A stretch of DNA of 28,044 nt from a bacterium (lineage in GTDB: Bacteria; SAR324; NAC60-12): positions 1 through 28,044 of the forward strand of contig CBDDTI010000077.1 in NCBI GenBank assembly GCA_965233585.1, in the 5' to 3' direction. The position numbers and the translations under genes were made by a program. Below, in pieces: positions 4,018 through 26,462 of this stretch (positions are counted from its first letter, which is position 1; every line of letters begins with the position of its first letter). The notes beneath the pieces are model-generated. The model had not been told where the DNA came from and did not search any database. It was given only the letters and a program-made list of their open reading frames with translations.

Positions 4018-4328
4018 GCGCGGTGTGTTTTACATTCTCAGCGTGAGTTTTCTCGTTTCTTTGCGTAAATTTCGCTCAACCCTCCCCTTGCGAAGTGTTT
4101 TTCATAAAGAATCTTTCAAAGCATTTTATTGTACGAAAAAGTTCTTATTATTTAATTTAGACAACAACTTCTAACTTTATTTATAATAAATGTACAAATG
4201 TTCGCGTGTTTGACCGCCCGCTTTTATTATAGAAAATAAATAATTTCAAGTTTGCGATTCAAATACTTCACTTCATTTTCAATTCTTGGACATTTCAAAG
4301 TTCAAAGTAAATTTTTAAATCTGACACA

Positions 4329-5351
4329 ATGAACTTCAACATTATTATCGTCTTTTTCATTGGGGTCTTTTATTTGGCTTCGTGCGAGGAAGACATCATT
4401 TTATTAAAAAGTCTCCTCGCTAAAATTGTTGGTTTTTCCAATTCTTCTGAAACAACCATTACGCCTACGATTGACTTTGCATCAACCAGTTCTTCCACTT
4501 CAAGCACCACGTCCACTTCAAGCACCACGTCCACTTCAAGCACCACAACTTCTACCAGTACTACCACTGTCCTGCCTACTACCGTTGCTACCACTGTCAC
4601 GAGCTCTACTCCTTCAACTACGACTTCACCCGTGCCTGTGTCGGAAACAAGCACCGGTTCTGCCACCACTTTCAATCCGCCGATCTTTTCTGCTTCACCT
4701 AATGTGTCAACCACAGATAATAGTTTCTCCTTCGCCGGTTTTGACTTTGCAATTTTTGACAGTAAGTATTGATTATTTTCTTTCCAGTCAACATTTTATA
4801 CAAAATCTTATTATTTTCAGATGTCTTCAAGATATTTGTCGGATTGGTGTTCGTCTTCATTTTTGTGACGTTCGCCATAATTATGTATAAATTAAGAAGA
4901 CTGGACCATCATCACCAACAGCCGTCTAATGTCGAAGTATGATTATTACATTTTATAAAATATTTTGTCTATTCTATATTTTTTTTAGCCTATTGAAATG
5001 ATTTCAATACAAGCTGCCGCAGATTCATCGACAAACGGAGAGGCTGTAGAAGAATCAAACGTCGAAATTTTGCCGGTTGAGTCAACCGCATCGGCGTTGC
5101 CGACCAACGCAACTCCCGAAAAAGTAGATCAAGCGACTAACACGGAGTATACGGTAGGAAATTTATTATTATTTTTAAATCACTTATTAAATATAATTTA
5201 TTTTTAGGTTTATCATAGACGACCGTATTTTTCAAGCATGATTCCTCCGTTATTTAACATGCCTCGGACGGAACCTGCGGCGGCTTCTTCAATAAACAAT
5301 GACCCTTCTCCTCCTCTTTGTGCCAGGCAAAATCTTTCTACTCCCGTATAA
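4329..5351 (+). CDS. Spliced type I membrane mucin-like glycoprotein, 285 aa; exons 4329-4761, 4821-4936, 4989-5153, 5208-5351
   Basis: Three GT-AG introns of 52-59 bp keep the frame. Signal peptide, Ser/Thr-rich ectodomain, TM IFVGLVFVFIFVTFAIIMY, basic KLRR, cytosolic tail ending STPV; AATAAA at 5384. Confidence 0.85.
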
Positions 5352-5457
5352 TATATATATAATCTAGTTTTTATTTTTATTTGAATAAAATAAATGCGCA
5401 TTTCATTTTATTTCTCAAAATACATTCATGCCTATGTACATTTTTGGTCGTTTTATT

Positions 5458-6668
5458 TTATTGTTGGATATGAGGCAGTTTTTTCTTGATGCCAAAACAC
5501 AATTCCATGAAGGCTTTTGTTATTTCCTCCAGCCCTCTTAGCGGTACTTGAATCTTCATAATCTTGGTCGAATACTGTTGGTTGTTTTCGTTATACTGAA
5601 AAAATGCCTTTTTAGATAAGATTTTTCACGCTATTTGACGTACTTACGTGTTCCTTTTTCACATAAATCACCGGCCAGGCTGATAGTCCTCCGGCCTTTT
5701 GAATATGCCTTAACCCGGTGATTCCAACGGTCACTTGCGGATTAAGGTATACTACCTTGTACATCGGCTTGATTGGAAGGCTGATGCTTTTCTCATCCAC
5801 TTTTTTTGTCTTGATCAGCTCAATAAATTTTTTGAGCGTGGCTGGATTTATGTACATATACTAAAAAAAAAATTAAAATTATTTTAATTCATCAAATTAA
5901 GTTAATATAGACTTACATTGTCTGGACCAAAAAAGTAGGCTTCTCTTGTTGAATGTTCTTTTTGCCATTCAGCAAAATCGATATCCCTTGTCTCGCATAT
6001 TTTTTCGGTAGTCCAATTTCGAAAATATTGCTTTTGCTCATCTTCGTCCATTAAAATTTGATACGACATCAATGACGCACCTTCATAGACCGCATGATTG
6101 TTAATTTCATTGTCCACCAACAATCCTTTTTTATTTGACCTTTTTCTTTTCTTTCCTAAAATGTCTTGAGTCTGCTCATTAAGATCTTCGTCATCATCAT
6201 CATCATCGTCATCATCATCGTCATTGTCATCATTTTCTGAACTTTCAACGCTCAACTCCTCCGCATCGGTTGAAACATCATCATCAGATTGAACAGTCGA
6301 AATTTCTGACTCTGATTCTTCTTCCGTTTCTTCATTCACAGACTCCGGTTCTGATGACGAAATGTCGTGGTTTCTTTTTTGTTTTTTTCCTTTAATTATA
6401 AAATCTTTAATTAATTGTAAAGCGTGTAAAAAACCGACTTAAAATTAAAATTACCTGATTTTAATTTATGTTTTTTATTTGTATTCTTCTTGGATTTTCC
6501 ATTACCAATCTTCTTTTTATTAGTCTTTTTATTTTTCTTTTCCGCCTCTGACGTATTTTCAGCCTTTTTTTTCTTCTCATCATCAATGGCTTTATTATCA
6601 ATCTCTTGCGATTTGCCATTTTTATTGACTGTGTTAGGCTTTTTCTTTTTTGCTGGTGATTTCTTCAT
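5458..6668 (-). CDS. Spliced 345 aa Lys-rich/Asp-rich protein with globular C-terminus (possibly PC4-like ssDNA binder); exons 6668-6455, 6389-5917, 5860-5648, 5595-5458
   Basis: Three GT-AG introns of 52-65 bp join three listed ORFs plus a final exon in one frame; AATAAA follows the stop. Confidence 0.75.
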
Positions 6669-7271
6669 CTTATTGCTTTAAATGCGGGTGATTTATTCTG
6701 ACAATAAATCTGTACTGACGTTTGTCATCGAATGTAGGTTCTTTTTAAACTTTCTTGAGTTTAAGGGAGTGTCAGTATGGCAATGTTCTAAGGGGCTCTC
6801 AATTCCACATGCGCGGGCAAGTAGCTGATAAGTTTCATCAATTTTGATTGGTTACACAGCATAAATAAGCTATGGCGCTGATGGTTGTAAATTTTAACGA
6901 TGCTGAACGCGTTTGAGGTCAATTCTTATTAATGTTTTTGGTTCATTCTAAATTATAACGCGTCAAGTCGTTAACAGACAATGCCCTAAGGAAATTATGG
7001 ATAATTTTTGTTTTTTGAACATGTTAAATTGTGAATTAAACAATGGTTCAAGAAAATTACGGAAAATGAGTGCTTTTTGTGTGCGTGTATTTTCCATTAA
7101 TTTTTCACATTCGACTAGTTAATATTTGTAACAAATTATATTTGTCAAAACTCGATCAAATCACCATTAATTTTTCTAAGTACTTAATGTTTCTCATGCT
7201 CAAGATTTGTAATTTGCTGTGGATATCCTTAATTTTTTGTGCTCAATTTGTCATTAATTTTTTCTCATGCA

Positions 7272-7320
7272 ATTGGCTCGTAAATGCGCCAAACTATTTC
7301 CCACCAAAAATTGTATAAAA
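7272..7320 (+). promoter_or_regulatory. Putative Pol II promoter: inverted CCAAT, E2F-like site, TATA box
   Basis: ATTGG 7272-7276, GCGCCAAA 7286-7293 and TATAAAA 7314-7320, about 90 bp upstream of ATG 7410. Confidence 0.5.
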
Positions 7321-7409
7321 ACGCGTTCATATTTTCAAATTCATCCATTATAAGTTTGAACATTCGTTGAAAGAAGATCTTCTGCCGTTCGCTATCAAAG
7401 GTAATTAAA

Positions 7410-8352: not shown

Positions 8353-9108
8353 ATGCCAAAATCCTACGTCTGCCGTGAATGTCAAAAATCGTTTGCTAGA
8401 AAATCTTCCCGAGACAAACATGAATCGTTTCGTCATCGTGAAACATCGTCAAAATTCCAAAATCGGACTCCGTTAAATCAATCGCTTCAGTGTCCGTTTT
8501 GTAAGAATGAATTAAGTTCCTTTAAATCAAGAAAAGATTTGGTTTCTCACATTGATTCCTCTCATTTAGAAGATTTAAATTATTCTCTTTTTAAATCTGC
8601 TTTGAACGGTAAAATTAAAATTTTTCGGAAACATATATTTTCTACAGAAACGCTTCACGCCTTTGTTGTTAATAGAGCAAATAGACAAGAAATTGTTGAT
8701 GTTATTCGTCATGAATTGAGTAAAACCTTTACAGTAAAAGTTGCTTTAATTTTATCAGCGGCGTATCAAATTCCTGATTTAAATTCAGCTACAAAAGACA
8801 CTGAGACGGAAACCGCTGTTGATAATACTTCAACACAGCCTCAAACGGTTGTTAGCAACATTGATAATTCAACTGAAAAAAGTCTTGATCAGTCGTCACA
8901 TGAATTAATGCCTAGCGATCGAGATGTCTTTGCTTTAAGAACCGGCTATATTCAATTTACGTCTTTTGATTCTTCTCGCTCGTTAAAAGGTAAAGTTCAA
9001 AAATTATTAAACAATTTAATAAGTCGAGAAGAGGATTTGTTGATGAGAGGTTCCGGATGGAGATTTGAATCTCTGTCTTTTAGTGACATCCAAATTACCA
9101 ATATTTGA
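8353..9108 (+). CDS. C2H2 zinc-finger protein carrying the terminal-protein-like region normally at the N-terminus of Maverick pPolB
   Basis: Fingers CRECQKSFARKSSRDKHESFRH and CPFC...LVSHIDSSH; C-terminal RGSGWRFESL...IQI matches the GSGW motif of the pPolB N-terminal region. Confidence 0.75.
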   Translation: MPKSYVCRECQKSFARKSSRDKHESFRHRETSSKFQNRTPLNQSLQCPFCKNELSSFKSRKDLVSHIDSSHLEDLNYSLFKSALNGKIKIFRKHIFSTETLHAFVVNRANRQEIVDVIRHELSKTFTVKVALILSAAYQIPDLNSATKDTETETAVDNTSTQPQTVVSNIDNSTEKSLDQSSHELMPSDRDVFALRTGYIQFTSFDSSRSLKGKVQKLLNNLISREEDLLMRGSGWRFESLSFSDIQITNI

Positions 9109-9158: not shown

Positions 9159-12100
9159 ATGGATTTTATAGAAATTCCGCGAAATTTAAAAAGATCTAAC
9201 TGCTTGGAATGGAATACTCGATATGATAAATTCAACTTTCTTTATCTGTACATTAGACATCTTTTTCCAGAAACTGCTTCCATTACAGATTTTCGTCAAA
9301 TGCCAGTAAAATATCTTAAAAAATTTAACATAAAAGGTTTTACGTTTCCTCTTCAATTTTGTGACATAAAAAAATTTTTGTATAGAAATCGTCATTTACC
9401 AATTTCAATTTCCGTACTTTATGAGAGTGAAGGCCACGTTTCAAAGTTAGGGTTTATTACTAACAAAAACAACGATAGGAGAGAAAATACTCTCCATTTG
9501 TTAATGATAAAACACGATCCTAAAATCTCTTCCGATAAAATTTCTAGTAATTCCCGCCCCAAAAAATCGAGTTTTCCTTCCAAGTTTCCTAAAAAAATCA
9601 AAGATTTAAATCAACAGCATCATTTCTTTAAAATTACAAAACTCCAAGGTTTTTTGAATAATCGGGCCGGACTGTTGTCGTTTAACAAAGCGGGTCAACA
9701 GAAGTACATTCACTGTGAAAAATGTCTGCTGCGTTTCCGATCAAAATCCAAGAAAGAAAAGCATGAGCGGATTTGCTACGATAAGCAACGCACCATTTAT
9801 CCCGGCAAAAATGCTGCTATAAGTTTTTCTAACCACAAACATAAGTTTAAAGCGCCTGTTGTGGGATTTTGTGATTTTGAAAGTGTACTTCAAAGAAACA
9901 AGGAACGATCTAAATGTCGACTTTGTTCTAAATTGGAATGCTTATGTGCTTTTCCCACAAGTGACGATATAAATGTGCATAGACCGGTAGGCTACAGCCT
10001 GATTTTTGTGGACTCCGAAAATGAAGTATTTTTTCAAGAAGAATATTTAGGAGAGGATGCGGCTAAACGTTTTTTGGATCGGATACCTCTCTACGAAAAA
10101 GTTGTTGAAGAAAGAAAACAAAAATTTAGAGATGTTCTCAAAACTCAAGCCACCCAGGAGGAATGGCAAATGTTTCGAAAAGCAACCGTTTGTCACATAT
10201 GCGGTCTTCGATTTGCTACCCATCCTAAAAAGTATAGAAAGGTTTTGGATCACGATCATGTCACAGGAAAAATAATGGGTGCGGCTCATTCGCTGTGCAA
10301 TTTGACAAGATCCGGACCCTATCATACGCCAATTTTTTTTCACAACGCTCAAGGGTAAAATTTTTTATTTATTTTATTTTTTCCAATCAATTTTACAAAT
10401 TAAACGTTTCAGATACGATTTGCATCTGATCATAGAAGAGTTAAACATTCGCCGATTCAAGAGAATGCCGGAAGTCTTGGCTAGAAACAGCGAGAAATTC
10501 CGCACTCTTACATTAGGCAGATTCAAAATTCAGGATTCATTAGAGCACATATCTGCCAGCTTAGACGCTCTTGTCCAAGATTTAAATCAAACTTCAAACT
10601 TTTCTTTCCCTATTTTACAACAGATGGAAAGATTCAAAAAAATTCCTATCCGTCAAAAATCAAAAGCTTTTAAACTTTTAAAAAGAAAAGGCATTTTTTG
10701 TTACGAGCATTTTCAATCATTACAAGAAATGAAAAAGAGTCGAAACCTTCCAACCAAAGATGCTTTTTATTCTGAATTAAATGAAGAACACATCTCAGAA
10801 ACGGATTATTCTCATGCGCAAGAAGTCTTCAAACTGTTCAAGTGCAAGAATGTGGCGGATTACATGATGCTTTATTGTTCTTTGGATGTTATCCTGCTAT
10901 GTGAAGCGTTTCTTCAATACCGAAAAATGGTTATGGAACATTTTCAATTGGATCCAATCTATTACTTAGGTAAATTTCTTTTCTGTTGCTTGTCATATAA
11001 AGTTTAAATATGAAATTTATTTCGTTTAATTTAGGAATTCCTGGACTAAGTTTTGATGTTATGCTTATGTTCTATCAAAACTCTGAACGAGCTACAACAA
11101 CAAAAGATAACCTCGCGGGTGAATCTTCCAAACCTCTAGGATCTCTGGATATCTATTCCGATCCTGAAATGGAGCACTTTTTCACAAAGGGTATCAGAGG
11201 CGGACAAAGCTTTATCTCTCAACGTTATGCAAAAGGAAACAGCAATCCGAGAAAAAGTGGCGATCATTTACTTTACATTGACGGTAATTTTATACTGCAT
11301 CGTTTGATTAATCTATTTATTTTAAATCGGTGACTTTTTAGCAAACAACTTGTACGGGAGCATGGAAACTTTAAAATTGCCAGTTTCTAATTTCGAGTGG
11401 GTTGCAAAAAAAGATCTTGAAAAATGGACTGCCAAAGATATTATCAAGATTCCTTCTCAAGACGAGACCGGCTACGCATTTGAAGTTGATTTGCATTATC
11501 CTCCTCATCTTCACCCGGTAAATCTGATCTTTTTAACACGTTTTGCATTTTGATAAACGGTAAAATATTTACAGACACATGATCAATTTCCGCTGGCTCC
11601 GTATACAGACACGGTTTCTTACAAACATCTGTCTCCTTATAATCGTCGTTTACTAAAACATCTTAACCCTCGAGATTATAAGAACAAAAGATACCGAAGC
11701 AAGAAACTGTTGAGCACTTTTTATGATCGAAAAAAGTACGTGGTGCATCTGGAAAATCTACAATATTATTTGAAAAAAGGCATGAAACTGTTGAGGATAA
11801 GAAGAGCCGTGAAGTTTCGGCAAAAAGCTTTTTTAAAAGAGTTTATTGAAAAGGTCACGATGCTACGATCAAACGCTCGCAACGATTTTGAACTTCGGCT
11901 TTTTAAGCTTTTTGCCAACTCTACTTTTGGAAAGTTTATCGGTAAGTAAATACTCAGATTTAAGATCTTTTTTGTATTTTTATATTTGCACAAGCGTGTG
12001 GTGGTACTGCCAATATTTAGTGCAAAATGTATTGGCAGTACACACCACACGCTCATCCGCATCTTCAATGTCGTTGTCGGGGGGCGCGTGAATCTCAGCC

Positions 12101-14086
12101 TCCACGGTGATGACCTCCCCGTCAAAATCCGCCATCCGGTTTTCCGCCGCCCGGATTTTGGCCAGACGGACAATCTCCGTTGCCCGACGTCTGGCGGCAA
12201 AAGATCTGTCGTCAGCGGGGATTCTGATGGGGATGGGGGCCTCGATGGGGTTGTCAGCGGGAATCTCGATGGGAAACTCGATAAACGCCTCGGTGGGCGC
12301 CTCGGTGGGGACGTTGGAGGAAATTTCGTTGGTGGGGGCCTCGATGAGCATCTCGATGGGGGACTCGGTGGGAGCTTCGATGAGCGCCTCGGTGGGGACG
12401 GGGACCTCAATTAGCACCTCGGTGGGGATGTTGGAGGAAATTTCGTTGGTGGGGGCCTCGATGAGCATTTCGATGGGGGATTCGGTGGGAGCTTCGATAA
12501 GCGCCTCGGTGAGAACGTTAGAGGGAATTTCGGTGGTGGGGACCTCGATGAGCATTTCGATGAGGGATTCGGTGGGAGCTTCGATAAGCGCCTCGGTGGG
12601 AACGTTAGAGGGAATTTCGGTGGTGGGGACCTCGATGAGCATTTCGATGGGGGATTCGGTGGGAGCTTCGATAAGCGCCTCGGTGGGAACGTTAGAGGGA
12701 ATTTCGGCGGTGGGGACCTCGATGAGCGTCTCGATGGGGGACTCTGTGGGGACGTTGGTGGGGAGATCGACAAGAATGTCGGTGGGGACGTCAAATTCAA
12801 TAAAATTTTCGTTTTGAAGGCCTCGGACAGCGCGACCGCTGCCGCCACCGCCAGCGCCAGCGTCGCTGCCCTCTCTGTTGACGGCAAGCACAGCAACGCC
12901 AACAGAGAGGGCAACGGCAGCGGCGCTGGCGGTGGCGGAGGCGGCAGCAGACGGCGGAGCATCAAAAATGTCGGCCACGGCCGACCGGATCCGCCGGATC
13001 AGGCCCGGTTTCCGGTTCTTTTTCTCCTCCTTCTCCCCCTTCAGCAGCCACTGCTCATCGTCATCCTCCTCATCCTTCAACCTCATATATTCCCTCTTCA
13101 TCTTCATCATCATCATCATCATCACTGTCCTCTTTCTTCTTTTTTGTTGTGAAAGTTTGTTTTGAAAATTGCCACATGGTTTTAGGAAGTTTTTAAAAAA
13201 TAAATCTCCAAACTCCTACACACTTTATAATGAATTTTTATATAAAATGTTGTATTCTTTATAAAATATTTATTTAATTTTATATTTTTCAGAAAATGTT
13301 CGAAATTACATCGAAGTGGTCCTTTGTGGAGATGAAAAAAGTCTGAGGAAAGCCAGTCTTGGTCAACACATCAACAATTTTCAAATCATTAATGAGAATT
13401 TGGTGGCTGTCAACAAGAAGCCGGCAATGATAGAACTTAGAAAGCCTTTAGCCGTCGGATTTTCCATTCTAGAGTTGTCCAAGTTGTTTATGTACAGATC
13501 ATACTATGACACCATTCAAAAACATTTTGGCAAAAACAATGTATCTTTGTGTTTTTCGGACACGGATTCTTTTCTTTTAAAAGTAAAATGCAACAATTTG
13601 GAAAGGGAAATGGAGAGATTGAAACACATGTTTGATTTTTCAAAGTACCCTAAAGAACATCCACTTTTTGACGACAGTAAAGCCAATCAACTTTTTTATT
13701 TCAAAGATGAATTAAAAGGTAGAGCGGCTATTACTGATTTTATAGGCTTACGTCCAAAATGTTATTCTATGAAAATAGTTGATTTTTTGGACAAAAACAA
13801 AATTGATGAGAAAAAAGTATGCAAAGGTTTAAAAAAATCTAGCATAAAAAAGCAATTAACTTATGCAGATTACAAAAAGTGCTTAAAACAAACTGTTGTA
13901 ATTTACAAATCTTTTAAAAATTTAAGATCAAAGAATCACAAAATCCGAACGTGTTTTCAAAGAAAAATTGCGTTGTCGGCAATGGATTCAAAAAGATATG
14001 TTTTAAATTGTGGATGTCACACTTTATCGCTAGGAAATTGCCTTATTGTTAACAACAAAATGTCTAAATGCCGAATTTGTAAATAA
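9159..14086 (+). CDS. polB: Protein-primed family B DNA polymerase, 1112 aa; exons 9159-10354, 10413-10969, 11035-11283, 11342-11517, 11575-11941, 13293-14086
   Basis: Splicing five GT-AG introns restores ExoII HNAQGYD, PGLSFD, motif A YIDANNLYG, HDQFPLAP and motif B KLFANSTFGKFIENVR. ExoI CDFES, ExoIII YCSLDV, motif C SDTDS and an Endo VII/HNH-like insert (CHIC...DHDHVTG...AHSLCN) are also present. Confidence 0.95.
11980..13122 (-). CDS. Nested antisense gene in polB intron 5: putative type II membrane protein with acidic Pro/Thr/Glu repeat stalk (start Met uncertain)
   Basis: About 380-codon ORF filling most of the 1351 bp intron. Hydrophobic AAAVALSVGVAVLAV segment, 29 aa repeats, TATA-like TATATAAAAA on the minus strand near 13235-13244. 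Confidence 0.65.
   Translation of the reverse strand: MMMMMMKMKREYMRLKDEEDDDEQWLLKGEKEEKKNRKPGLIRRIRSAVADIFDAPPSAAASATASAAAVALSVGVAVLAVNREGSDAGAGGGGSGRAVRGLQNENFIEFDVPTDILVDLPTNVPTESPIETLIEVPTAEIPSNVPTEALIEAPTESPIEMLIEVPTTEIPSNVPTEALIEAPTESLIEMLIEVPTTEIPSNVLTEALIEAPTESPIEMLIEAPTNEISSNIPTEVLIEVPVPTEALIEAPTESPIEMLIEAPTNEISSNVPTEAPTEAFIEFPIEIPADNPIEAPIPIRIPADDRSFAARRRATEIVRLAKIRAAENRMADFDGEVITVEAEIHAPPDNDIEDADERVVCTANTFCTKYWQYHHTLVQI
12270..12790. repeat. 87 bp tandem repeat (29 aa unit PTEALIEAPTESPIEMLIEVPTTEIPSNV on the minus strand)
   Basis: CCTCGATGAGC(A/G)T recurs at ~12456, 12543, 12630 and 12717, with degenerate copies on each side. Confidence 0.9.
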
Positions 14087-15263: not shown

Positions 15264-16109
15264 ATGAGTTCAGGCGTGAAAAGAAAAACAAATGACGAAA
15301 TATACTCAATGTTTTTAGTCCCTAAAAGACTATATCATTCTTTAATAAAAAATATAGAAGATAATGAAACAAAAAAAGAACTTATTTCTATGAATGAAAA
15401 ACCAAATACAACCAATTACATTGAAAATGCCATTAATTTTAAAAATTTACAAGACAGGCAAAAAATGAATCAAAGCGGCGATAAATTGTATCGTTTTGGT
15501 TCTGATAATATATCGAATGTTATGCCGCCAGTACAAATCGATAGCAGTGCAGGTCGCACGTACCAATCTATTTCAAGATCAACAACCGCTCAAACTCCCC
15601 AACAAAAAGAAAATACCGCTCAGTTTTCACCCACTACTCCCGTTATGGAAAGAGAACCCGATCCAGACTTGTTTTATACTGCTTCAAAACCAAAAAGCAA
15701 GGACGATACTTCAACTCCTGACGTGCCAGAATGGCGAAATTCGCCTGTTATAAAGGCATTGACACAAAAAAATTCAGACGGCAAAATAGTTTGTCCCTTT
15801 AGCGCATGCGGGAAGCAGTATGTTGACGATGCGCAATTCGGCAAACACCTTGTAAGAGATCATATGAAAGAATTGTCTATATTTGACACAGAAAAAATCG
15901 GTAAAGATATAGCCTCGGTCTCTTCACAAGCATCAAAGTCCCCTTCGGCTTCAATATCATCCCTCAAAACAGGATCAGGAGGTGCAAAAAAGAAAACTTT
16001 TACTATTTCTCCTGTACAAACTAGATCTAAATCAAAAAAACTTTCAAAAACTGATGCAGATGCTGTTAAAAAAAAATTACTTTTTCCGGGAAAATACCCA
16101 AAATTATAA
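15264..16109 (+). CDS. Hypothetical protein with one C2H2 zinc finger and basic tail (281 aa)
   Basis: N-terminal MFLVPK; finger CPFSACGKQY...FGKHLVRDH; tightly packed after the previous ORF. Confidence 0.75.
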   Translation: MSSGVKRKTNDEIYSMFLVPKRLYHSLIKNIEDNETKKELISMNEKPNTTNYIENAINFKNLQDRQKMNQSGDKLYRFGSDNISNVMPPVQIDSSAGRTYQSISRSTTAQTPQQKENTAQFSPTTPVMEREPDPDLFYTASKPKSKDDTSTPDVPEWRNSPVIKALTQKNSDGKIVCPFSACGKQYVDDAQFGKHLVRDHMKELSIFDTEKIGKDIASVSSQASKSPSASISSLKTGSGGAKKKTFTISPVQTRSKSKKLSKTDADAVKKKLLFPGKYPKL

Positions 16110-16612: not shown

Positions 16613-17956
16613 TTAATTTGTTCCTTTTATAACTTGTTGGAATTGATCTATTTTGATGCCGGAGTTGAAAACAGAAAAAGCCAGAACGTATATAGGATGA
16701 GGAGTTATTACGGAAAAAGCCAATTCTAAATCTAAATTTCCGTAATTTTCTGGATGCACGTGGAACGAATTACATTGATCCGGTGTTAAATCGGCCGCTA
16801 GAAAAAATCTTCCTTTTAAATATTGTTCATACGTTAAACCGATGGATTGATTGCCGTGCGAAATGCCAATACTGTCGTATAAATGCCGATACAAGTCAAT
16901 GGCATCCCCCTCGTTTATATTAGGTTGAAATGGTCTGGGAAATACGCATTGACCGTTCTTTTTTAAATTAAAAGTAGACAGATTAAAATGTTGAAAGTTG
17001 AAAGGGTTTTTGTCCGGGGCGTGTGACATGGCTTGATTGTGAACCATCACAAAAAACACTTGTTTCGGTAAAGTACCATTAGCGATATTAGCGATGTTGA
17101 AGGACGACACACCTTGAGGAATAACATAATGTCTTAAACGTGTAGCGCTAAAAGGTAGGTAGCACGGTTCTTTTAAAAGTTTGTTTTTAAAACTTTCTCG
17201 CAGCAATAATGTGGGCAACACTTTTCTCATATGTAGTTTAACATCTTTTAAAACAATTTTAAAAGGTTTTTCTGCCGCAGCATCTTGAAGCAAACCAAAC
17301 TTTTCAGCGGATCTAACCAGCTTGATTTTGATATCCACATTTGGGGGTAAAAATCTGTCGGTGTCAAACAGATCAACGGCTAAGCGCGTATTAAAATACA
17401 CTTTTTTACCGTCCATAATTAACTGCTTTCTTTTATTCAAAGAAGGTGTGGCGGCTGTAAGATTTATGGTATCAACTTCGTCAGCATTTTCGGGATAATA
17501 CCCTTCAGCAGCCAGATAAGTTTTTTTCACCTCTGAATTGTAACTTAAAAATGATTGTATGAACATTCTCCAAGGATAAGTGACCGCTGAACTTAAATCA
17601 GCTACTTGGACCCCGTTTAAATATACTTCTACTTGGCTGAATAAACAAGCGGCAAAATGATTAGCCAGTGTGACTTTAGTATCATTTTTTACCTGTTCGC
17701 CATCGTCATTTGTCACTACAAAATAGCCGCTAAGTCTGGTTTGATTCAGTATAAAAGAGCATTCGTTATCGCGAGGAACAAGAAATTCGACCGGTCCGGT
17801 ATTGGTGATAGAAGCCACGCTATTGTAAATAACGTGAGCTCCATCTAATAAACCCGTTTCTACTTCTAACGGTGAGTGAAGCGCTAAACCACTTTCGGTG
17901 CCGTCGTTTTGTTCAACGGCCAATCCGGCAATTCCACTTTTTTCAGGTACGCCCAT
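16613..17956 (-). CDS. Major capsid protein (double jelly-roll, Maverick PY), 447 aa
   Basis: GPVEF, LFSQVEVYLNG, RFLPPNVDIKIKLVR, LPKQVFFVMV, NPFNFQHFNL, YRHLY and DLTPD motifs. Likely start is MGVPEK at 17956; the upstream extension overlaps the TBP-like gene. Confidence 0.92.
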   Translation of the reverse strand: MGVPEKSGIAGLAVEQNDGTESGLALHSPLEVETGLLDGAHVIYNSVASITNTGPVEFLVPRDNECSFILNQTRLSGYFVVTNDDGEQVKNDTKVTLANHFAACLFSQVEVYLNGVQVADLSSAVTYPWRMFIQSFLSYNSEVKKTYLAAEGYYPENADEVDTINLTAATPSLNKRKQLIMDGKKVYFNTRLAVDLFDTDRFLPPNVDIKIKLVRSAEKFGLLQDAAAEKPFKIVLKDVKLHMRKVLPTLLLRESFKNKLLKEPCYLPFSATRLRHYVIPQGVSSFNIANIANGTLPKQVFFVMVHNQAMSHAPDKNPFNFQHFNLSTFNLKKNGQCVFPRPFQPNINEGDAIDLYRHLYDSIGISHGNQSIGLTYEQYLKGRFFLAADLTPDQCNSFHVHPENYGNLDLELAFSVITPHPIYVLAFSVFNSGIKIDQFQQVIKGTN

Positions 17957-17962
17957 AACAAA

Positions 17963-18505
17963 ATGGAAGTGTTGGTCAGCAATGTAAAAATTAGTTGTAA
18001 AGTTCATCTTATCAACAGCGACGAAATCTCTTTTAATACTGATAATACAATAAAACGTTATAATAATTTTGTTGTAATAAGAAAAAAATATTCCTTTATT
18101 ATATTTACCAAAACAAAGCAAAATCGTCATTTTCACGTAAACATTACAAAAATCCCCTCTACAGAACACATTGCGAAAGCATTAGACGAACTAAAATTTA
18201 TTATAAGTAACGAATTTGTTGTTGAAATATTTAAAGTAGAAAACATGACTTGTTTGTATCAATCAAAAGAAGAGATTAAATTATTAAAATTATACAACCA
18301 TTTAAAATCGAATAAAGATTTTGAAATTATTCTTAAGAGATATGATCCAGAAAAATTCCCAGGCGTATTTTTAAAAATAAAAAAATGTTCAGCTTTAATA
18401 TTTTCGTCAGGAAAAATAGTTATAATTGGAGCCTCCAGCGAAGAAGATGCTAAACAAGGAATAAAAATTATTATTAAATTATTAAAAAAATATAAAATTG
18501 AATGA
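17963..18505 (+). CDS. TBP: TATA-binding-protein-like factor (180 aa)
   Basis: Two-repeat architecture: VSNVK...NNFVVIR...FIIF and VENMT...YDPEKFPGVFLK...ALIFSSGKIVIIGA. Confidence 0.9.
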   Translation: MEVLVSNVKISCKVHLINSDEISFNTDNTIKRYNNFVVIRKKYSFIIFTKTKQNRHFHVNITKIPSTEHIAKALDELKFIISNEFVVEIFKVENMTCLYQSKEEIKLLKLYNHLKSNKDFEIILKRYDPEKFPGVFLKIKKCSALIFSSGKIVIIGASSEEDAKQGIKIIIKLLKKYKIE

Positions 18506-18561
18506 TGTGAATAATGTTTATTTAGTCGAGTTTTGATATCTATACAATAAACATTGAAATC

Positions 18562-19320
18562 ATGCACGAGAAAGTAGATTATACTAAAATATGCAATCAT
18601 CAATATCCAGTAGAAGACACCAGGCAAGGAGACGTGGTGTGTACCGAGTGTGGATTAGTTATTGATAAAATATATTGTCATAATTTAACAAAATCAAATT
18701 TGGAAACAGAATGGGACAAAATAAAAACATTTGATAAAGAAATTAAACAAAAAAACCAGCATTTAGAGAAAGAAAAAAATATTTTAAAAATTTTATGTAA
18801 TAAATTACATTTAAATAATGATGTTACAAATGTTATTTTAAATCTATGGTCGGATATAGCAGCGTGGCATTATCAAAAAGGCGGAAAAATTAAAATGGAT
18901 GTTAAAGGATTGGTGGTAATGACGTTGTATCAGGGGTTAATAAAAGAAAAAATTCCCCGCCCGATAAGTCATTTGTGTCAAGAAGTCGGCATTAATCCAA
19001 AGATAGTGTGGCGTTGGATGAAATTATACAGACGGGATTTGACTGACATGAATAAATTAGACAATTACATAAAGGCAAAAGATATGAAAGAATATTTTTT
19101 ACAGCCGCTGCAGTTAAATTATCAAGAAATGACGTCCGTTGAACAAATATTAAAAAAAAATGAAAATAGTTCTTTTGCTCCAAGAACTTTATTAGCTGCA
19201 TGCGCTTATGCCTTTTTAAAAGAATCCAAATTGAGGTATTTAAGCGTCAAAAATATGGCTCACATTTTAGGCGTCAGTGTTATGTCGTTGTACAGATGTC
19301 GTAAAAGTCTAAATCAATAA
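18562..19320 (+). CDS. TFIIB: TFIIB-like transcription initiation factor (252 aa)
   Basis: Zn ribbon CNH...VEDTRQGDVVCTECGLVID. Two cyclin-like repeats (LCNKLHL...TLYQGLIKEKIPR; APRTLLAACAY...VKNMAHILGVSVMSL). Confidence 0.9.
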   Translation: MHEKVDYTKICNHQYPVEDTRQGDVVCTECGLVIDKIYCHNLTKSNLETEWDKIKTFDKEIKQKNQHLEKEKNILKILCNKLHLNNDVTNVILNLWSDIAAWHYQKGGKIKMDVKGLVVMTLYQGLIKEKIPRPISHLCQEVGINPKIVWRWMKLYRRDLTDMNKLDNYIKAKDMKEYFLQPLQLNYQEMTSVEQILKKNENSSFAPRTLLAACAYAFLKESKLRYLSVKNMAHILGVSVMSLYRCRKSLNQ

Positions 19321-19329
19321 AGTACATAT

Positions 19330-19731
19330 ATGAATTACCACAGCGGTTTACATTGGCAACGAGGTTCGGGAATTGGATCGCTTTTTTCCGGAATTTTTCG
19401 CGGATTAATGCCGGTAGCGAAATCAACGATAAAAACTATTGGACGTGTAGCTAAAAGCGCCCCGATAAAATCTGTAGGAAAAGCTTTAAAGAAAGAAGCG
19501 ACAAGAGCGGCTGTAGAAACGGCGATAGAAGCTTTGGAGGGTCAACCGGTGGGCAGAAAAGCAAAACAACGTTTGAAATCCGCTACGCGAGGTATTTTGC
19601 TTAACGCTGCCCGACAAGCCGATAGCAACGACGATTATCGAACTCAAAATTCAAACAAAAAAAGGAAATCCTCGTCAATCACGCAATCTAGGAAAAAAAG
19701 GCGCAAAATTTCTAAAGAACCTCTGTTTTAA
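19330..19731 (+). CDS. Basic core/DNA-condensing-like virion protein with N-terminal protease site
   Basis: QRGSGIGSLFSGIFRGLMP motif typical of Maverick core proteins; Lys/Arg-rich C-terminus. Confidence 0.8.
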   Translation: MNYHSGLHWQRGSGIGSLFSGIFRGLMPVAKSTIKTIGRVAKSAPIKSVGKALKKEATRAAVETAIEALEGQPVGRKAKQRLKSATRGILLNAARQADSNDDYRTQNSNKKRKSSSITQSRKKRRKISKEPLF

Positions 19732-20826: not shown

Positions 20827-22566
20827 ATGGATTATAATATTTATTGCGTGTCAAACGCTAGTTCCGATACGGATGACAAAAATACTTTAAATTCTTTTAC
20901 CAATTTATTTCCACAAAGTTTAGACTTGAAAAATAGAGAATGGGAAATTGGGGTAGTGTCTATTGGATTACATTACAACTACAACCAATTGACTTTGTCA
21001 AAAGGCCAACCTTGTTTCATCACGCTAAAAAACGAATTAACATCTATACATTCTTCGGAAGAAGACATAAGGTCCGAAATTTTAGACCAGACAAAATCCA
21101 TTTGGGTTTTGCCTAATTTAGATGAAGAGGATTTGACAGTGCATAGACTGATGCAAAATTTGATGCAATATATTTACAAGGAAGGAATGAGATTGTATAA
21201 TTTTGAACCCAAATCAGGGGGTAAAGATGAAAAAGCTTACGTAATAGATGAAAACCCGAAAAAAGAAATGGAAAATGAAAATTACAATTATAATAGATAT
21301 TTTTTAATACATAAACATTTTATAAAAATTTTAAATTTAAAATACTACCAAAACGGTTTTGTATCCTCCCAAGCAAAATCAATCAAGTTTTTTGACAACG
21401 AATATGTGTATTTTTCTGTAAAGAAAAATTTTGCGCTTTTAACTACAGCAATTAAAGCGTATTCCGTTTTAAAACCCGGTCTGGTTCAAATAAAATCAAA
21501 TATTATTTCTGACGTTCCCAGCGGAAATAGTTATTCCACAATTATGTTTACAACGACTTTGCCAAATCAAATGGAAGGTCATTATTTTTACCATAATGTA
21601 AAAAATATTAGATATTATCAAGTGCGACAATCTAATATTGAAACGATAAACACTCAATTTATAGATTCTTTTGGGAATCTTTTAAGTTTAAACGAAGGTC
21701 AGCCGTCTATAGTGCATTTTCATTTAAAAGAAAAAGATAAAAATATGGATTACGAATTAACGCACGTACGAATCGATTCACAAGTAGATACCAAATTGAA
21801 CTACGAAAATACAAATAGTAGTTTTTGGGCACACTTAAAACATCCGATAAGTTTGAATCAAAACGCGAAAATAGCCTTGATGGATATATCTTTTCCCAAC
21901 ACCATATGTAGCATTCCAGAATCAATTGGAAGGAATCCGTTTATCTTTAATGTGTTGATGAACCAAAACGAAACAAAAAAACACGTCGTGGAAATACCAA
22001 ACCTTTATTTCTGCAACTCTGATGATCTAACAACATCAATAAACCGTCTGTTATCCGAAGAACTAAAGGAAATTTTACATTTTGAGAACTTTAATGGATT
22101 CTTTAGGATTGTGGCTAAAACAGATAAACCTTTTTCAATAAGCATTCCCAAAAACTTTTGCCCGTTTTTAGGAATGTACGATTACTCGGAGAAAGAATTT
22201 GCAAGAATTGAGGAACGAGGTGATTACGTCACGCTTGCAGTGACTAAGGAAAGATTTTTTGAAGCGCCAAAACCAATGGATGTTTACAAATTATATCCCG
22301 GTGTTATGATATGTTATGCAAATTTTGTTCAACATTCCATTATTGGAGACAAATTTTACCCAATATTTAGAGTTATACCAACAATCGGTCAATCCACACA
22401 AAATGACTACTGTTCTATCCATTTCGAACATTTAGAATTTATAAGATGCAATGTTGATTATTTAGACGACATAAAGATCGAACTCAGGAGATTAGACGGA
22501 AATTTGATTGAATTTAACGACGATCGAAGAGTAATTTTAAACATTGTAATTAAAAATCCAATTTAA
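20827..22566 (+). CDS. Minor capsid (penton-like) protein made of two tandem units (579 aa)
   Basis: Unit 1 (aa 1-306): SNAS...NTLNSFTN...WEIGVVSI...DSFGNLL. Unit 2 (from 21745): NTNSSFW.HL..PISL...IALMDISFP...SIIGD...FRVIP...IKIELRRLDGNLI. Confidence 0.85.
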   Translation: MDYNIYCVSNASSDTDDKNTLNSFTNLFPQSLDLKNREWEIGVVSIGLHYNYNQLTLSKGQPCFITLKNELTSIHSSEEDIRSEILDQTKSIWVLPNLDEEDLTVHRLMQNLMQYIYKEGMRLYNFEPKSGGKDEKAYVIDENPKKEMENENYNYNRYFLIHKHFIKILNLKYYQNGFVSSQAKSIKFFDNEYVYFSVKKNFALLTTAIKAYSVLKPGLVQIKSNIISDVPSGNSYSTIMFTTTLPNQMEGHYFYHNVKNIRYYQVRQSNIETINTQFIDSFGNLLSLNEGQPSIVHFHLKEKDKNMDYELTHVRIDSQVDTKLNYENTNSSFWAHLKHPISLNQNAKIALMDISFPNTICSIPESIGRNPFIFNVLMNQNETKKHVVEIPNLYFCNSDDLTTSINRLLSEELKEILHFENFNGFFRIVAKTDKPFSISIPKNFCPFLGMYDYSEKEFARIEERGDYVTLAVTKERFFEAPKPMDVYKLYPGVMICYANFVQHSIIGDKFYPIFRVIPTIGQSTQNDYCSIHFEHLEFIRCNVDYLDDIKIELRRLDGNLIEFNDDRRVILNIVIKNPI

Positions 22567-24809: not shown

Positions 24810-25350
24810 GTTCTCAGAACCTTTCTTCGCGCCCCCGAACTGATTCAAAACGTGGAAAGTGGGGAAAAATTGAGGTTGCAAACGGCTTGCAATCGGCTTG
24901 CAACAGGCCGATTGCAGACGAAAACAAGCCGATTACAGGCTCGATTGAGCCTGTTGCAAGCCGATTGCAGACGAAAACAAGCCGATTACAGGCTCGATTG
25001 AGCCTGTTGCAAGCCGATTGCAGACGAAAACAAGCCGATTACAGGCTCGATTGAGGTTGTTGCAAGCCGATTGCAGACGAAAACAAGCCGATTGCAGGCT
25101 CGATTGAGGTTGTTGCAAGCCGATTGCAGACGAAAACAAGCCGGTTGCAGACGATTACAAGCCGATTTCAGGTTGAAACAGGCTCAATGTAGATGCCATC
25201 AAGGTGTTTTGAGAGCGCATCAAGATGGTTTTTATCGGTAAACGGATGGTTGAAAGACGGTTTCAGCCTGTTTTAAGGTGTTTTGAGAACGTTTTAAGGT
25301 GTTTTGAGAGCGTAACAAGCTCGAATGAGAGTGATGTAGGGACATTACCC
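24810..25350 (-). repeat. Right terminal inverted repeat
   Basis: Reverse complement of 2501-3039. Confidence 0.96.
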
Positions 25351-26462
25351 TTCCCCCGTGGGCGATCTCGTGGGACTTCAGGTTTCCCACTAGCCGTTTC
25401 CGGTTCCCCAACCGATGCACTATCACCTGACTGTTGACCTCGCTCTGCCTCTTTTCCACCAGCCCCTCCATAGCCCGAGCGATGGCATCCTCTCTTCGAA
25501 CTGCACTGAGACTGCCGCCCCCTTTCCGGCGAAGGTGTCAGAGTTCGAGCCCTGCTTGCACTAACCCCCGGTAAACGATCTTCCTGTTCTCGATCCCTCT
25601 TAGGCCCACGCTTTTTCCCTTTCAGGACTGGCATGTCCCACCGTATGAATGGGGGACCCTGGTGACGTCCACCCGCCTGTCTGTGGGCCTCCTCTTTCCA
25701 AAGCCCTAAGAAATCCCGCCGTCGAGGAGGCGGAGAGGCTGTCTGATGATTGCAAATCTCCCTGTCTGAGGTCTTCAGACGAGCAAACTTCTTGCGGTCA
25801 CGATCCATATCATCCGGATCCAATCCTATCCTGTCGTTCACTCTCCTAATCTTTTCTAAAGCGAACGGTTTGAGGATCGAGGTCCTTAAGGAATCCGGTA
25901 CCTGCTGCATTGACACATGTTCCGGAATCACATGCTCACTTCCAATCAAAGTCACAAAACTGAGAGATTCCTCCCAGTGAGCCCAATCTCTAATCTCCTT
26001 GGGTCTTCTCTTGAGGATCAACTGATCGTGGTATTCAGGCACATCGTAAATATACGGACACTTACATATTCACCCTAATGGTTCTGAAACCGCCTGTTCC
26101 AGGTGACTCCATCTTACCACCTTGCGTCTCTCCAGCAACCTTGAGCTCCTCATGGCCCCCTCTCCGGATCCATCATCCTCCGTTTCGGTTCCATCTATGC
26201 GAAGGTTCCCGATGACCAGCAACTCTGGAGGCTCCAACAATCCCTCATGTTCGGCCGCAACTACTAGACTTCCCAGCTTGTCTAACGCCCCCATCTCTTC
26301 TGGATCTAAAGACGGCACAATTCCATCCAATGACATGAAGGCCATCCAGTTGGAAAGAGCAAACACTAACCGGGCCTGTTCCGGTGTTACCTTTTCTCCC
26401 GTCTTTGCTGCTTGCGCCGTGTTCCACCCGTAGGTTACATTGCCCCTAAATGGCGCAATCAA
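25351..26462 (-). pseudogene. Disrupted ~370-codon host-side ORF (possibly retroelement ORF1), truncated by the Maverick
   Basis: ORFs 26462-26070 and 26042-25351 share a frame and are separated by one TGA; GC-richer than surroundings; no recognised domain. Confidence 0.4.

Follow-up and report, generated by a model that had tools for sequence, protein, structure and literature searches.

A Maverick/Polinton clade carrying a conserved, linked pair of TBP-like and TFIIB-like genes

Two adjacent genes, one for a TBP-like and one for a TFIIB-like protein, are real, selected genes of one Maverick/Polinton clade. They were studied in a 28,044-nucleotide stretch of DNA (contig CBDDTI010000077.1, positions 1 to 28,044), hereafter the window, in which a complete Maverick/Polinton of 22.9 kb spans positions 2501–25350. 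We consider it probable that the two proteins act in the nucleus as an element-encoded core-promoter recognition pair that brings host Pol II to the genes of the element. In this proposal we infer the mutual binding of the two proteins, their binding to DNA, Pol II as the recruited enzyme and the promoters served.

Results

The gene pair lies in a complete Maverick/Polinton

Judged by its ends and gene content, the element is a Maverick/Polinton, with TIRs, genes for a protein-primed PolB and an rve-chromo integrase, and putative genes for a packaging ATPase, an adenain-like protease and a double-jelly-roll capsid protein (Table 1). The TIRs pair in two segments, 2501–2986 with 24865–25350 at 99% and 2988–3039 with 24810–24861 at 98%, for a total of ~540 bp. 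These ends are confirmed by a second full copy (C30:1000–23887), which aligns to positions 2500–25351 at 97.9%. No target-site duplication was seen in the one copy examined, in which the six bases flanking each end differ.

Table 1. Positions, strands and supporting evidence for the features of the element
Feature	Position in window	Strand	Evidence and remarks
Left TIR with internal ~53-bp tandem units	2501–3039		inverted repeat pairs and second full copy
C2H2 zinc-finger protein, 251 aa	8353–9108	+	weak Pfam zf-C2H2 and zf-Di19 matches; immediately 5' of PolB
Protein-primed PolB, intron-bearing	9159–14086	+	exo and polymerase motifs; GT...AG junctions
Putative packaging ATPase (A32/FtsK-like), 231 aa	14145–14840	+	sub-cut-off Pfam matches: ATPase_2 E = 2.9e-4, Pox_A32 E = 2.9e-3, FtsK_SpoIIIE
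281-aa ORF	15264–16109	+	no significant match in Pfam or PHROG; conserved in lineages A and B
Putative adenain-like cysteine protease, 160 aa	16127–16609	-	Peptidase_C5 E = 0.024, sub-cut-off
Putative major capsid protein, 447 aa from Met59	16613–17956	-	ORF extends to 18130; relatives 446–450 aa
TBP-like protein, 180 aa	17963–18505	+	derived repeat 1 (residues 1–84), canonical repeat 2 (residues 85–180)
TFIIB-like protein, 252 aa	18562–19320	+	zinc ribbon 10–38, variable linker 39–68, two cyclin folds 69–252
Small basic protein, 133 aa	19330–19731	+	3' of TFIIB in 39 of 40 copies
Retrovirus-type integrase with C-terminal chromodomain, 362 aa	19732–20820	+	rve and Chromo Pfam matches
579-aa ORF	20827–22566	+	unmatched in Pfam, PHROG and PDB sequence searches; conserved in all three lineages
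Right TIR	24810–25350		inverted repeat pairs and second full copy

The Exo I/II and polymerase A/B/C motifs of PolB were legible across exons, and the GT...AG junctions restored these motifs. At least five GT-AG introns interrupt the PolB gene, including a large one (about 11946–13290) that contains a GC-rich tandem repeat. The match of PolB to PF03175 was weak in the window (E = 0.076; weak DNA_pol_B_2 match) but in sister copies 14 of 21 matches exceeded the cut-off. PolB also carries an HNH/EndoVII-like insert (Pfam Endonuclease_7, E = 1.1e-5), and this endonuclease VII was the sole match when the element proteins were searched against PHROGs. The integrase matched rve (PF00665) with 35.4 bits against a cut-off of 32.6 (E = 1.3e-8) and Chromo with E = 7.6e-5. 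Relatives of the packaging ATPase were found on 44 contigs of the assembly, and those of the C2H2 zinc-finger protein on 35 (tblastn). The top PDB sequence match of the protease was adenovirus proteinase, at a non-significant E = 0.47. The capsid protein of the window had no direct Pfam or PDB sequence match; its assignment is supported via the distant relatives P0359 and P0362, which match the double jelly roll-like domain PF21738. The position of the 281-aa ORF suggests that it encodes a candidate minor capsid protein.

The preliminary description of this DNA had placed the pair inside the capsid module and had reported that the element lacks an RNA polymerase. The first statement was loose, as the pair lies at the edge of the module, between the capsid gene and the gene for the small basic protein, which is followed by the integrase gene. 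The capsid and TBP genes are arranged head to head, with start codons 6 bp apart. The second statement was upheld within the reach of Pfam, where none of the 75 ORFs of ≥70 aa overlapping the element matched an RNA polymerase family at E ≤ 0.001.

The TBP-like protein combines a derived and a canonical repeat

The two ORFs are adjacent, intact and co-oriented as first described; their coordinates were exact, both are on the + strand and the spacer between them is 56 bp. Both are also intronless, with one open frame each that spans the entire fold. This state is not element-wide, since the PolB gene has GT-AG introns.

The TBP-like protein matched Pfam PF00352 with E = 3.4e-19 and 68.9 bits (cut-off 22.9) over residues 90–177, that is, in repeat 2 only. 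Against PDB sequences it reached E = 7e-19 in phmmer, and the family profile matched PDB TBPs with E = 2.5e-22. The AF2 model (pLDDT 92, pTM 0.83) consists of two strand-rich halves. When this model was searched with Foldseek, ranks 1–44 were all TBP chains, with TM 0.57–0.75 and ~195 aligned columns; alignments of this length cover both repeats. The fold assignment of the preliminary description thus withstood structure prediction for both proteins, as TBP chains and TFIIB chains headed the respective Foldseek lists. According to its predicted structure, the product of the first gene is a TBP with two tandem repeats in one saddle.

Most of the functional residues named beforehand were recovered at the positions expected from canonical TBPs. 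Both asparagines, N7 and N94, aligned with those of canonical TBPs, as did the acidic TFIIB-binding stirrup YDPE (Y127-D-P-E130). Of the four claimed intercalating phenylalanines, three (F48, F132 and F147) were confirmed; the residue aligned with the fourth is Y33, not F36 of the motif NNF. An aromatic residue occupies position 33 in 38 of 39 copies, the exception being His; this residue is Phe in 14 of the 15 lineage-C copies. All 39 copies retain N7, F36, F48, N94, E130, F132 and F147. The strong divergence of the first repeat was likewise borne out: no sequence match was obtained for repeat 1, which lacks helix H1 and in which the S3-S4 hairpin is longer. Within the family, repeat 1 is conserved on a par with repeat 2 (0.74 vs 0.68). 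Invariant columns are enriched in the saddle beta strands, which hold 28 of these 49 columns and 73 of all 180 residues (odds ratio 2.5, Fisher p = 0.007). The TBP family profile scored archaeal TBPs at 79–82 bits and eukaryotic TBPs at 52–59 bits, a separation of ~20 bits, and this preference for archaeal TBPs makes the protein unlike a recent copy of a host gene.

The TFIIB-like protein combines a zinc ribbon, two cyclin folds and a degenerate B-reader

The TFIIB zinc ribbon was found as predicted, in the form C-x-H...C-x2-C, with the ligands C11, H13, C27 and C30 kept in 39 of 39 copies. The ribbon scored 28.8 bits against Zn_Ribbon_TF (PF08271), 0.2 under the cut-off of 29. Human TFIIB was matched with E = 1.4e-4 by the single sequence and with E = 1.3e-7 by the family profile, in the ribbon. 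The cyclin-repeat model PF00382 gave no Pfam match at E ≤ 1. The two cyclin folds were borne out by the fold of the AF2 model (core pLDDT about 80–90) in both Foldseek and VIA-align. In Foldseek, TFIIB chains occupied ranks 1–14 (E = 9e-9 to 4e-7), followed by TFB, Brf and cyclins. VIA-align over residues 59–252 gave Z 11.4–12.8, with TFIIB, Brf1, Brf2 and archaeal TFB tied at 11.6–12.8, and cyclins scored 10–10.6. Because of this tie, the fold alone does not settle which polymerase is served.

Each cyclin fold ends in a conserved helix-turn-helix-like segment (residues 134–156 and 226–248). Conservation was highest in these two segments (0.81 and 0.76) and in the ribbon (0.73), and lowest in the linker. 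The B-reader is indeed degenerate: residues 39–68 are variable (conservation 0.34), and residues 36–65 have pLDDT <50. In place of a conserved B-reader/B-linker there are ~30 aa that vary in length and sequence. In cellular TFIIB, the B-reader and B-linker help to open the DNA and to set the start site. As these parts are unrecognisable here, the TFIIB-like protein may not support canonical initiation.

The two genes are linked and under purifying selection

A search for the linked pair in other Mavericks and an estimate of dN/dS had been proposed at the outset; both were carried out within the 12-Mb assembly to which the window belongs, where copies were counted. TFIIB lies 511–779 bp (about 600) downstream of TBP, on the same strand, in 40 of 40 TBP copies, and the gene order is constant: capsid<, TBP>, TFIIB>, basic ORF>, integrase>. 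The copies of the pair form three lineages, with identities down to ~40% for TBP and ~30% for TFIIB. The pair flanks 38 of 40 integrase copies, the remaining two being only 35–41% identical, and 39 of 42 protease copies, the remaining three lying at contig ends. The pair is missing from more distant Maverick families of the same assembly. Beyond the assembly, a hint of the same linkage comes from equal "longest contig" lengths among the matches.

Among 42 TBP matches and 43 TFIIB matches, 39 each were open over the full length. Between lineages A and B, dN/dS was 0.19 for TBP (dS 0.71) and 0.25 for TFIIB (dS 0.55); within lineages, the values for the pair were 0.15–0.22. For comparison, dN/dS was 0.135 for the protease, 0.17 for the basic ORF (A vs B) and near 0.07 for the integrase and the ATPase. 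The TBP and TFIIB genes are therefore under purifying selection. For contigs of four public runs, which come from two samples and two studies, the variants listed across positions 17800–19400 included just two indels, at 17962 and 19321, both just outside the ORFs.

The pair was not found in the collections and literature searched

In IMG/VR, no TBP family member was present among 283 pattern matches, and the TFIIB search gave one giant-virus contig with a ribbon match only. Among 31 pattern matches in GTDB genomes, there was no TFIIB of this family. A metagenome scan with patterns from the canonical TBP repeat 2 yielded archaeal-type TBPs only, with no family member among the best 80 of 505. 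The TBP-TFIIB pair was also not found in the text of the Maverick/Polinton literature searched. The claim that the pair stands outside the standard Maverick gene set held in this respect, with one qualification: the Figure 5 legend of Starrett 2021 (PMC8502044) labels a gene "TBP" in a MELD virus with an adintovirus-like PolB. As a pair, TBP and TFIIB are new for Mavericks.

Upstream sequences and host compartment

Upstream regions were inspected visually and with regular expressions, without statistics. TATA-like boxes were located 30–45 nt 5' of the start codons of PolB, the ATPase and orf14886 in lineages A and B, and all 8 representative copies had a TATAWAW or TATAAA box within 100 nt 5' of the start codon of TFIIB. 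These boxes hint at promoters, in DNA that is AT-rich, with some boxes inside coding sequence and with lineages A and B too close for strong phylogenetic footprinting. The stretch was present in six public runs from two studies, none of which is listed as an RNA run. The GT-AG introns of PolB and the chromodomain of the integrase suggest that the element is expressed in the nucleus. The nearest named relative of the capsid protein is a lizard protein annotated "F54H12.2-like" (30% identity); together with the short GT-AG introns, this relative hints at a host that may be an animal or a close relative of animals.

Discussion

A proposed core-promoter recognition pair for a host polymerase

The retention of both genes in intact form in an element without a polymerase suggests that the element steers a host polymerase to its own genes. 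In the mechanism that we propose, TBP would bend a TATA-like element in the promoters of the element, and TFIIB would clamp the retained acidic C-terminal stirrup of TBP. The two conserved helix-turn-helix-like segments of TFIIB would read the flanking DNA, and its ribbon would dock host RNA polymerase II. Element genes could then be transcribed without dependence on host TBP/TFIID and TFIIB, or could escape the control exerted through these factors. A complex prediction for TBP with the TFIIB core (residues 66–252) gave a score of 0.00; as it was run without controls, it weighs neither way. We counted against the proposal that the nearest viral look-alikes of both proteins belong to giant viruses, which use a polymerase of their own.

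The pair could instead be a decoy or competitor that occupies host TATA boxes, or soaks up host TFIIB, TBP or Pol II, and so shuts down or rebalances host transcription. The degenerate B-reader/linker is what would be expected of a binder that is unable to complete initiation. The rewriting of TBP repeat 1 fits as well, since TFIIA and other regulators bind to this part of cellular TBP. However, a decoy would not require two genes that co-evolve, are always linked and contain conserved segments for reading DNA, the zinc ligands kept in 39 of 39 copies point to productive polymerase docking, and the element's own genes would still require transcription. We therefore regard a decoy role as unlikely.

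Somewhat less likely still is a virophage-like role, in which the pair would work with the polymerase of a giant virus infecting the same cell and would adapt the promoters of the element to that machinery. This reading draws on the relationship of Mavericks to virophages (PMC10328495) and on the Nucleocytoviricota labels of the nearest viral structures and Atlas clusters of both proteins. The ~20-bit preference of the TBP profile for archaeal TBPs, unlike a recent host copy, is compatible with it. Against it stand the GT-AG introns of PolB, which need the nuclear spliceosome, the integration of the element by a chromodomain integrase and its presence in dozens of genomic copies. Moreover, known virophages borrow the factors and promoters of the giant virus and are not known to bring their own.

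A further reading takes the TFIIB-like protein as Brf-like or Rrn7-like, so that the pair would bring in Pol III or Pol I of the host, for instance to produce a small non-coding RNA of the element. The structural comparison allows this, because VIA-align places Brf2 and Brf1 chains level with TFIIB (Z 11.7–12.8), but the sequence matches go to TFIIB itself. In addition, the second cyclin fold closes the protein at residue 252, so that there is no C-terminal Brf extension, and searches of the window found no tRNA and no Rfam family. We consider this reading improbable. That the genes are functionless, decaying passenger copies of cellular genes, as the general tendency of Mavericks to acquire host genes might alone suggest, is very improbable and contradicted by the dN/dS of 0.15–0.25, the intact copies (39/42 and 39/43 matches), the key residues kept across lineages that are only 30–40% identical, the constant gene order and the confinement of indels to positions outside the ORFs.

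The preferred reading, recruitment of host Pol II by the pair, can be taken further, although only tentatively, and we lean against rather than towards this extension. A polymerase-less nuclear element lineage with its own TBP-TFIIB pair, in which one half of TBP is rewritten and the DNA-reading helices of TFIIB are conserved, may possess a private core-promoter code with which it hijacks host Pol II. In addition, the pair may be a remainder of a transcription apparatus common to Maverick-like ancestors and giant viruses, dating from before or during the gain of a viral polymerase. Its greater resemblance to giant-virus and archaeal versions than to host TBP is what suggests such a shared ancestral remnant.

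Significance

As far as found, viruses that encode homologues of both TBP and TFIIB are giant viruses with their own polymerase, and for nuclear viruses without a polymerase nothing beyond the TBP mimic of herpesviruses was previously known. Among known genetic elements that encode their own core-promoter recognition pair, a 23-kb Maverick in which selection maintains both factors would be the smallest. It would offer a two-protein system for asking what is minimally needed to redirect Pol II, what TFIIB can do without a B-reader and how integrated virus-like elements evade host transcription control. The pair also bears on the debate on whether giant viruses arose from Maverick-like ancestors. 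Finally, the record in which it was found, a prokaryotic genome (a marine bacterial bin), contains megabases of eukaryotic mobile-element contigs.

Comparison with known systems

The element proteins share with eukaryotic TBP/TFIIB and archaeal TBP/TFB the two-repeat saddle, N7, N94, the aromatic wedges, the acidic stirrup of repeat 2, and the ribbon followed by two cyclin folds. Unlike cellular TBP, the element's protein has a repeat 1 without sequence match, without helix H1 and with an extended hairpin. Unlike cellular TFIIB, its partner is ~60–90 aa shorter and has no recognisable B-reader/linker.

Giant viruses (Nucleocytoviricota) likewise encode short, divergent TBP and TFIIB homologues, examples being the putative TBP of Heterosigma akashiwo virus 01 and the B263R homologue of asfar-like viruses. 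Among viral structures, giant-virus proteins matched the fold of the TBP model best (E from 2.5e-11 down), and they formed the nearest Atlas clusters of both proteins. In contrast to the 22.9-kb element, which has spliced genes and no polymerase gene, giant viruses own a multisubunit RNA polymerase and mostly use cytoplasmic factories.

The intermediate transcription factor VITF-3 of poxviruses is described as an atypical TBP/TFIIB heterodimer (PMC12917281). By this description it is, like the element's pair, a virus-encoded combination of a TBP-like and a TFIIB-like protein, and according to that source it acts as one promoter-recognition unit. VITF-3 differs in that it is stated there to need the viral polymerase for loading onto DNA, and the element has none.

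The "TBP" of Starrett 2021 (PMC8502044) resembles the element's gene in that it is TBP-like and belongs to a mid-size virus-like element whose PolB is of the Polinton type. In section 3.4 and the legends of that paper, it is a legend entry only; TFIIB is not mentioned there, and the linkage, conservation and function of the gene are not discussed.

The closest functional analogy is with the beta- and gamma-herpesviruses, which have no polymerase of their own and bring host Pol II to late promoters with a TBP mimic (KSHV ORF24, EBV BcRF1, HCMV UL87) within a late-gene pre-initiation complex (PMC7498053, PMC12529657, PMC4893493). The fold match of the TBP model to this mimic was weak (BcRF1, E about 1e-3). 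In herpesviruses, the TBP fold of the mimic is one domain of a large Pol II-binding protein that works with five other viral partners and no TFIIB homologue, whereas the element encodes a TBP together with a TFIIB-like protein.

Organization of the Maverick element

The TBP and TFIIB-like ORFs, whose positions in the preliminary description were exact, are separated by a 56-bp spacer and lie within a complete Maverick/Polinton element. Its terminal inverted repeats (TIRs, 540 bp) are 98–99% complementary, and a second full copy in the same assembly aligned with it end to end at 97.9%. No target-site duplication was found at the ends of this copy (2495–2500 compared with 25351–25356). The genetic code is standard, with both TAA and TGA acting as stops. 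Removal of the PolB introns restored the Exo II, motif A and motif B/C contexts. The N-terminal PolB exon includes an endonuclease VII/HNH-like segment (residues 332–383, Pfam E=1.1e-5) adjoining the Exo motifs. As had been claimed, the element lacks an RNA polymerase within the reach of Pfam: none of its 75 ORFs (≥70 aa, overlapping the element) matched such a family at E≤0.001. No tRNA or Rfam families were found within the window.

Features of the element in map order
Feature	Position	Strand	Remarks
Maverick/Polinton element	2501–25350
Tandem ~53-bp units	2701–2947, 24904–25150		four to five, in the TIRs
Left arm	3040–7400		poor in long ORFs
Ser/Thr-rich frame	4329–4772	+	hydrophobic start
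Very acidic frame	5902–6438	−
Lys-rich frame	6411–6677	−
C2H2 zinc-finger protein	8353–9108		directly 5′ of PolB; conserved on 35 contigs
Protein-primed PolB	9159–14086		interrupted by five or more GT-AG introns
PolB N-terminal exon	9159–10358		C2H2-type zinc ribbon beside Exo motifs
Largest PolB intron	11946–13290		GC-rich (~60%) tandem repeat, varies among copies
Open frame, 411 aa	11980–13215	−	crosses the intron repeat; repeated 'PTE...IE' units
Packaging ATPase, A32/FtsK-like	after PolB		Pfam matches below cut-off
Two small ORFs
Adenain-like protease		−	Pfam match below cut-off
Capsid		−	assigned via distant relatives with Pfam double jelly-roll-like domain
TBP	17963–18505	+	180 aa
TFIIB-like protein	18562–19320	+	252 aa
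Basic protein	downstream of TFIIB		133 aa
rve integrase	downstream of basic protein		with chromodomain
ORF	downstream of integrase		579 aa, no family assigned

The left arm may contain spliced genes that ORF lists miss, and the C2H2 zinc-finger protein could act as a second, sequence-specific regulator of the element's transcription. A long minus-strand ORF reaching 18130 covers TBP codons 1–56. Because the capsid relatives are 446–450 aa long, the capsid start was placed at Met59 (17956). The capsid and TBP start codons are thus head to head and only 6 bp apart (17956–17963), so the promoter of each gene must sit within the coding sequence of the other.

The first ORF encodes a TBP with a derived first repeat

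The identification of the first ORF as a TBP was confirmed by Pfam, PDB and structure searches. It matched PF00352 with E=3.4e-19 (68.9 bits, cut-off 22.9), and the single sequence matched 35 TBP sequences in the PDB (phmmer, best E=7e-19). The family profile improved the best match to E=2.5e-22 and scored archaeal TBPs at 79–82 bits, compared with 52–59 bits for eukaryotic TBPs. The AlphaFold2 model (27-sequence alignment, pLDDT 92, pTM 0.83) consisted of two strand-rich halves. In a Foldseek search of the PDB, ranks 1–44 were all TBP chains (aligned over ~195 columns, lowest E 8e-11, TM 0.57–0.75), followed by unrelated hits at E ~1e-3 or weaker.

Alignment with canonical TBPs identified the two conserved Asn (N7 and N94), three of the four DNA-kinking Phe (F48, F132 and F147) and, at Y127-D-P-E130, the stirrup, which is the TFIIB-binding site in cellular complexes. 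All of these had been named before. The fourth Phe, previously assigned to F36 (NNF), was misplaced: the alignment put the fourth wedge position at Y33, in agreement with the internal repeat register. This position is Phe in 14/15 copies of the most divergent lineage in the assembly (lineage C, see below). Each key residue was retained in at least 38 of the 39 copies. In the wider family, the saddle strands held 28 of 49 invariant columns (Fisher p=0.007).

The divergence noted for the first repeat was also evident, as the Pfam match was limited to residues 90–177 and the first half of the predicted structure lacked the short helix H1 and had a longer S3–S4 hairpin. Repeat 1 was as conserved as repeat 2 (0.74 vs 0.68) and represents a derived state rather than decay.

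The second ORF encodes a TFIIB-like factor

The TFIIB-family assignment of the second ORF likewise held. The protein scored 28.8 bits against the Pfam TFIIB zinc ribbon, 0.2 under the cut-off, and did not match the Pfam cyclin-repeat model PF00382. Its best PDB sequence match was human TFIIB, at E=1.4e-4 when the sequence was searched alone and at E=1.3e-7 when the family profile was used. The AlphaFold2 model had a mean pLDDT of 73, with ~80–90 for the core from residue 69 and <50 for residues 36–65. Foldseek ranked TFIIB chains 1–14 (E=9e-9 to 4e-7), followed by archaeal TFB, Brf1 and Brf2, and then by cyclins. In VIA-align (residues 59–252), TFIIB, TFB, Brf1 and Brf2 were level at Z 11.4–12.8, with cyclins at 10–10.6. 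The fold therefore defines a TFIIB-like factor and does not tell which polymerase it serves.

The zinc ligands C11-x-H13...C27-x2-C30 were retained in 39/39 copies. Conservation was highest in the ribbon (0.73) and in two helix-turn-helix-like segments (0.81 and 0.76), one closing each cyclin fold. It was lowest (0.34) in the ~30 residues at the place of the B-reader/B-linker, which vary in length and sequence; the B-reader is degenerate, as described earlier.

The pair is linked and under selection

The assembly (12 Mb, 747 contigs, 92% complete) contained 42 TBP matches in three lineages of pair-bearing copies, with 93–100% (A, including the window), 75–78% (B) and 37–42% (C) identity to the TBP of the window; the TFIIB of lineage C was 27–31% identical. 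For 40/40 TBP matches >100 residues, TFIIB was located 511–779 bp downstream on the same strand, and the order was constant: a capsid gene in the opposite orientation, then TBP, TFIIB, the basic ORF and integrase in the same direction. Lineage C contigs (C47, C58, C98, C401 and others) carry two tandem capsid-like genes upstream of TBP (52–57% and 38–42% identical to the window's capsid protein), whereas lineages A and B carry one.

Most copies were full length and open (39/42 TBP and 39/43 TFIIB matches); the remainder were truncated or stop-bearing. Between lineages A and B, dN/dS (Nei-Gojobori) was 0.19 for TBP (dS 0.71) and 0.25 for TFIIB (dS 0.55), with 0.15–0.22 within lineages; dS was saturated in comparisons with lineage C. 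The neighboring protease and basic ORF gave 0.135 and 0.17, and integrase and ATPase gave ~0.07 with lineages labeled by identity thresholds and A and B mixed. The linked pair, at 0.15–0.25, is thus not decaying neutrally. In contigs from four public runs (two samples, two studies), 30/30 bins of 17800–19400 were covered, and the only two indels listed there (17962 and 19321) fall just outside the ORFs.

Relatives of the element's genes were spread over 18–47 contigs. The record, which is treated as prokaryotic, includes eukaryotic Mavericks and other repeats on dozens of contigs, and eukaryotic contamination probably accounts for much of the bin.

Distribution of the pair

Word-based searches of 5.8 billion proteins yielded 36 TBP family members, 5 canonical-type TBPs and 48 TFIIB family members. 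ENA or Logan assemblies were the source of nearly all of them, and all were unnamed. TBP relatives at 49–60% identity represent at least one additional lineage, absent from this assembly. Searching 1.84 billion representatives with a profile gave 619 TFIIB-like proteins with E≤1e-3, of which 171 had E≤1e-10; among the 150 listed, most were 200–290 aa long. Among 20 clusters looked up, one member was named 'TFIIIB Brf1 subunit/TFIIB' and the others had no name; several were found on many contigs, up to ~20 kb. The longest contigs of capsid, TBP and TFIIB relatives were equal in size (8156, 11868, 5974, 5966, 21519, 11734, 10894, 6759 and 14469), which hints at linkage outside this assembly.

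The assembly also contains at least one more distant Maverick family (C322, C581, C315 and C304; PolB 24–38% and integrase 26–35% identical) with no TBP or TFIIB match. On contigs such as C322, C581 and C315, where PolB is 30–38% identical, PolB and integrase are present, but neither Pfam nor the family profile detected TBP or TFIIB. Hence the pair is an accessory of a single clade and not a feature of Mavericks in general. The initial observation stands: the pair is genuine, is maintained by selection and belongs specifically to this clade.

Proposed role of the pair

Nuclear expression is indicated by the PolB introns and by the chromodomain of the integrase, and the element has no polymerase gene. 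In the simplest reading, which we favor with some reserve, the private TBP–TFIIB pair would mark the promoters of the element, and the ribbon of the TFIIB-like protein would dock host Pol II. TBP would contribute the retained DNA-wedging residues and the stirrup, and the TFIIB-like protein the docking ribbon and, likely, DNA-reading segments. The rewritten repeat 1 is the side of TBP used by cellular regulators and TFIIA; the pair may therefore escape host control. In lineages A and B, TATA-like boxes preceded the start codons of PolB, ATPase and orf14886 by 30–45 nt. In 8/8 representatives, TATAWAW or TATAAA occurred in the 100 nt before the TFIIB start codon, whereas no box was seen upstream of TBP. 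In this AT-rich DNA, the boxes hint at promoter sites.

What most hampers a fully canonical mechanism is the missing B-reader/linker, which leaves room for three other readings. A decoy is unlikely in our judgment, a helper for a giant-virus polymerase slightly less likely still, and service to host Pol III or Pol I improbable.

Comparison with known systems

In the available portions of the Polinton/Maverick literature on TBP, TFIIB or TATA-binding, no such pair was described, and the matches concerned giant viruses. 'TATA', 'TBP' and 'TFIIB' were absent from the main texts of three recent surveys (PMC10120064, PMC10328495 and the preprint 10.64898/2026.06.19.733378). The sole precedent found was in Starrett et al. 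2021 (PMC8502044; also in the preprint of that paper), where the Figure 5 legend labels a 'TBP' gene for a MELD virus with an adintovirus-like PolB and mentions no TFIIB. To this extent, the pair lies outside the standard Maverick gene set, as had been proposed. It is a variant of virus-encoded basal transcription factors that is new for Mavericks, and its mechanism is inferred. Among its closest analogues are the TBP/TFIIB homologues of giant viruses and the poxvirus VITF-3 pair (PMC12917281). In function, the closest analogue is the TBP mimic with which herpesviruses recruit Pol II (PMC7498053, PMC12529657, PMC4893493).
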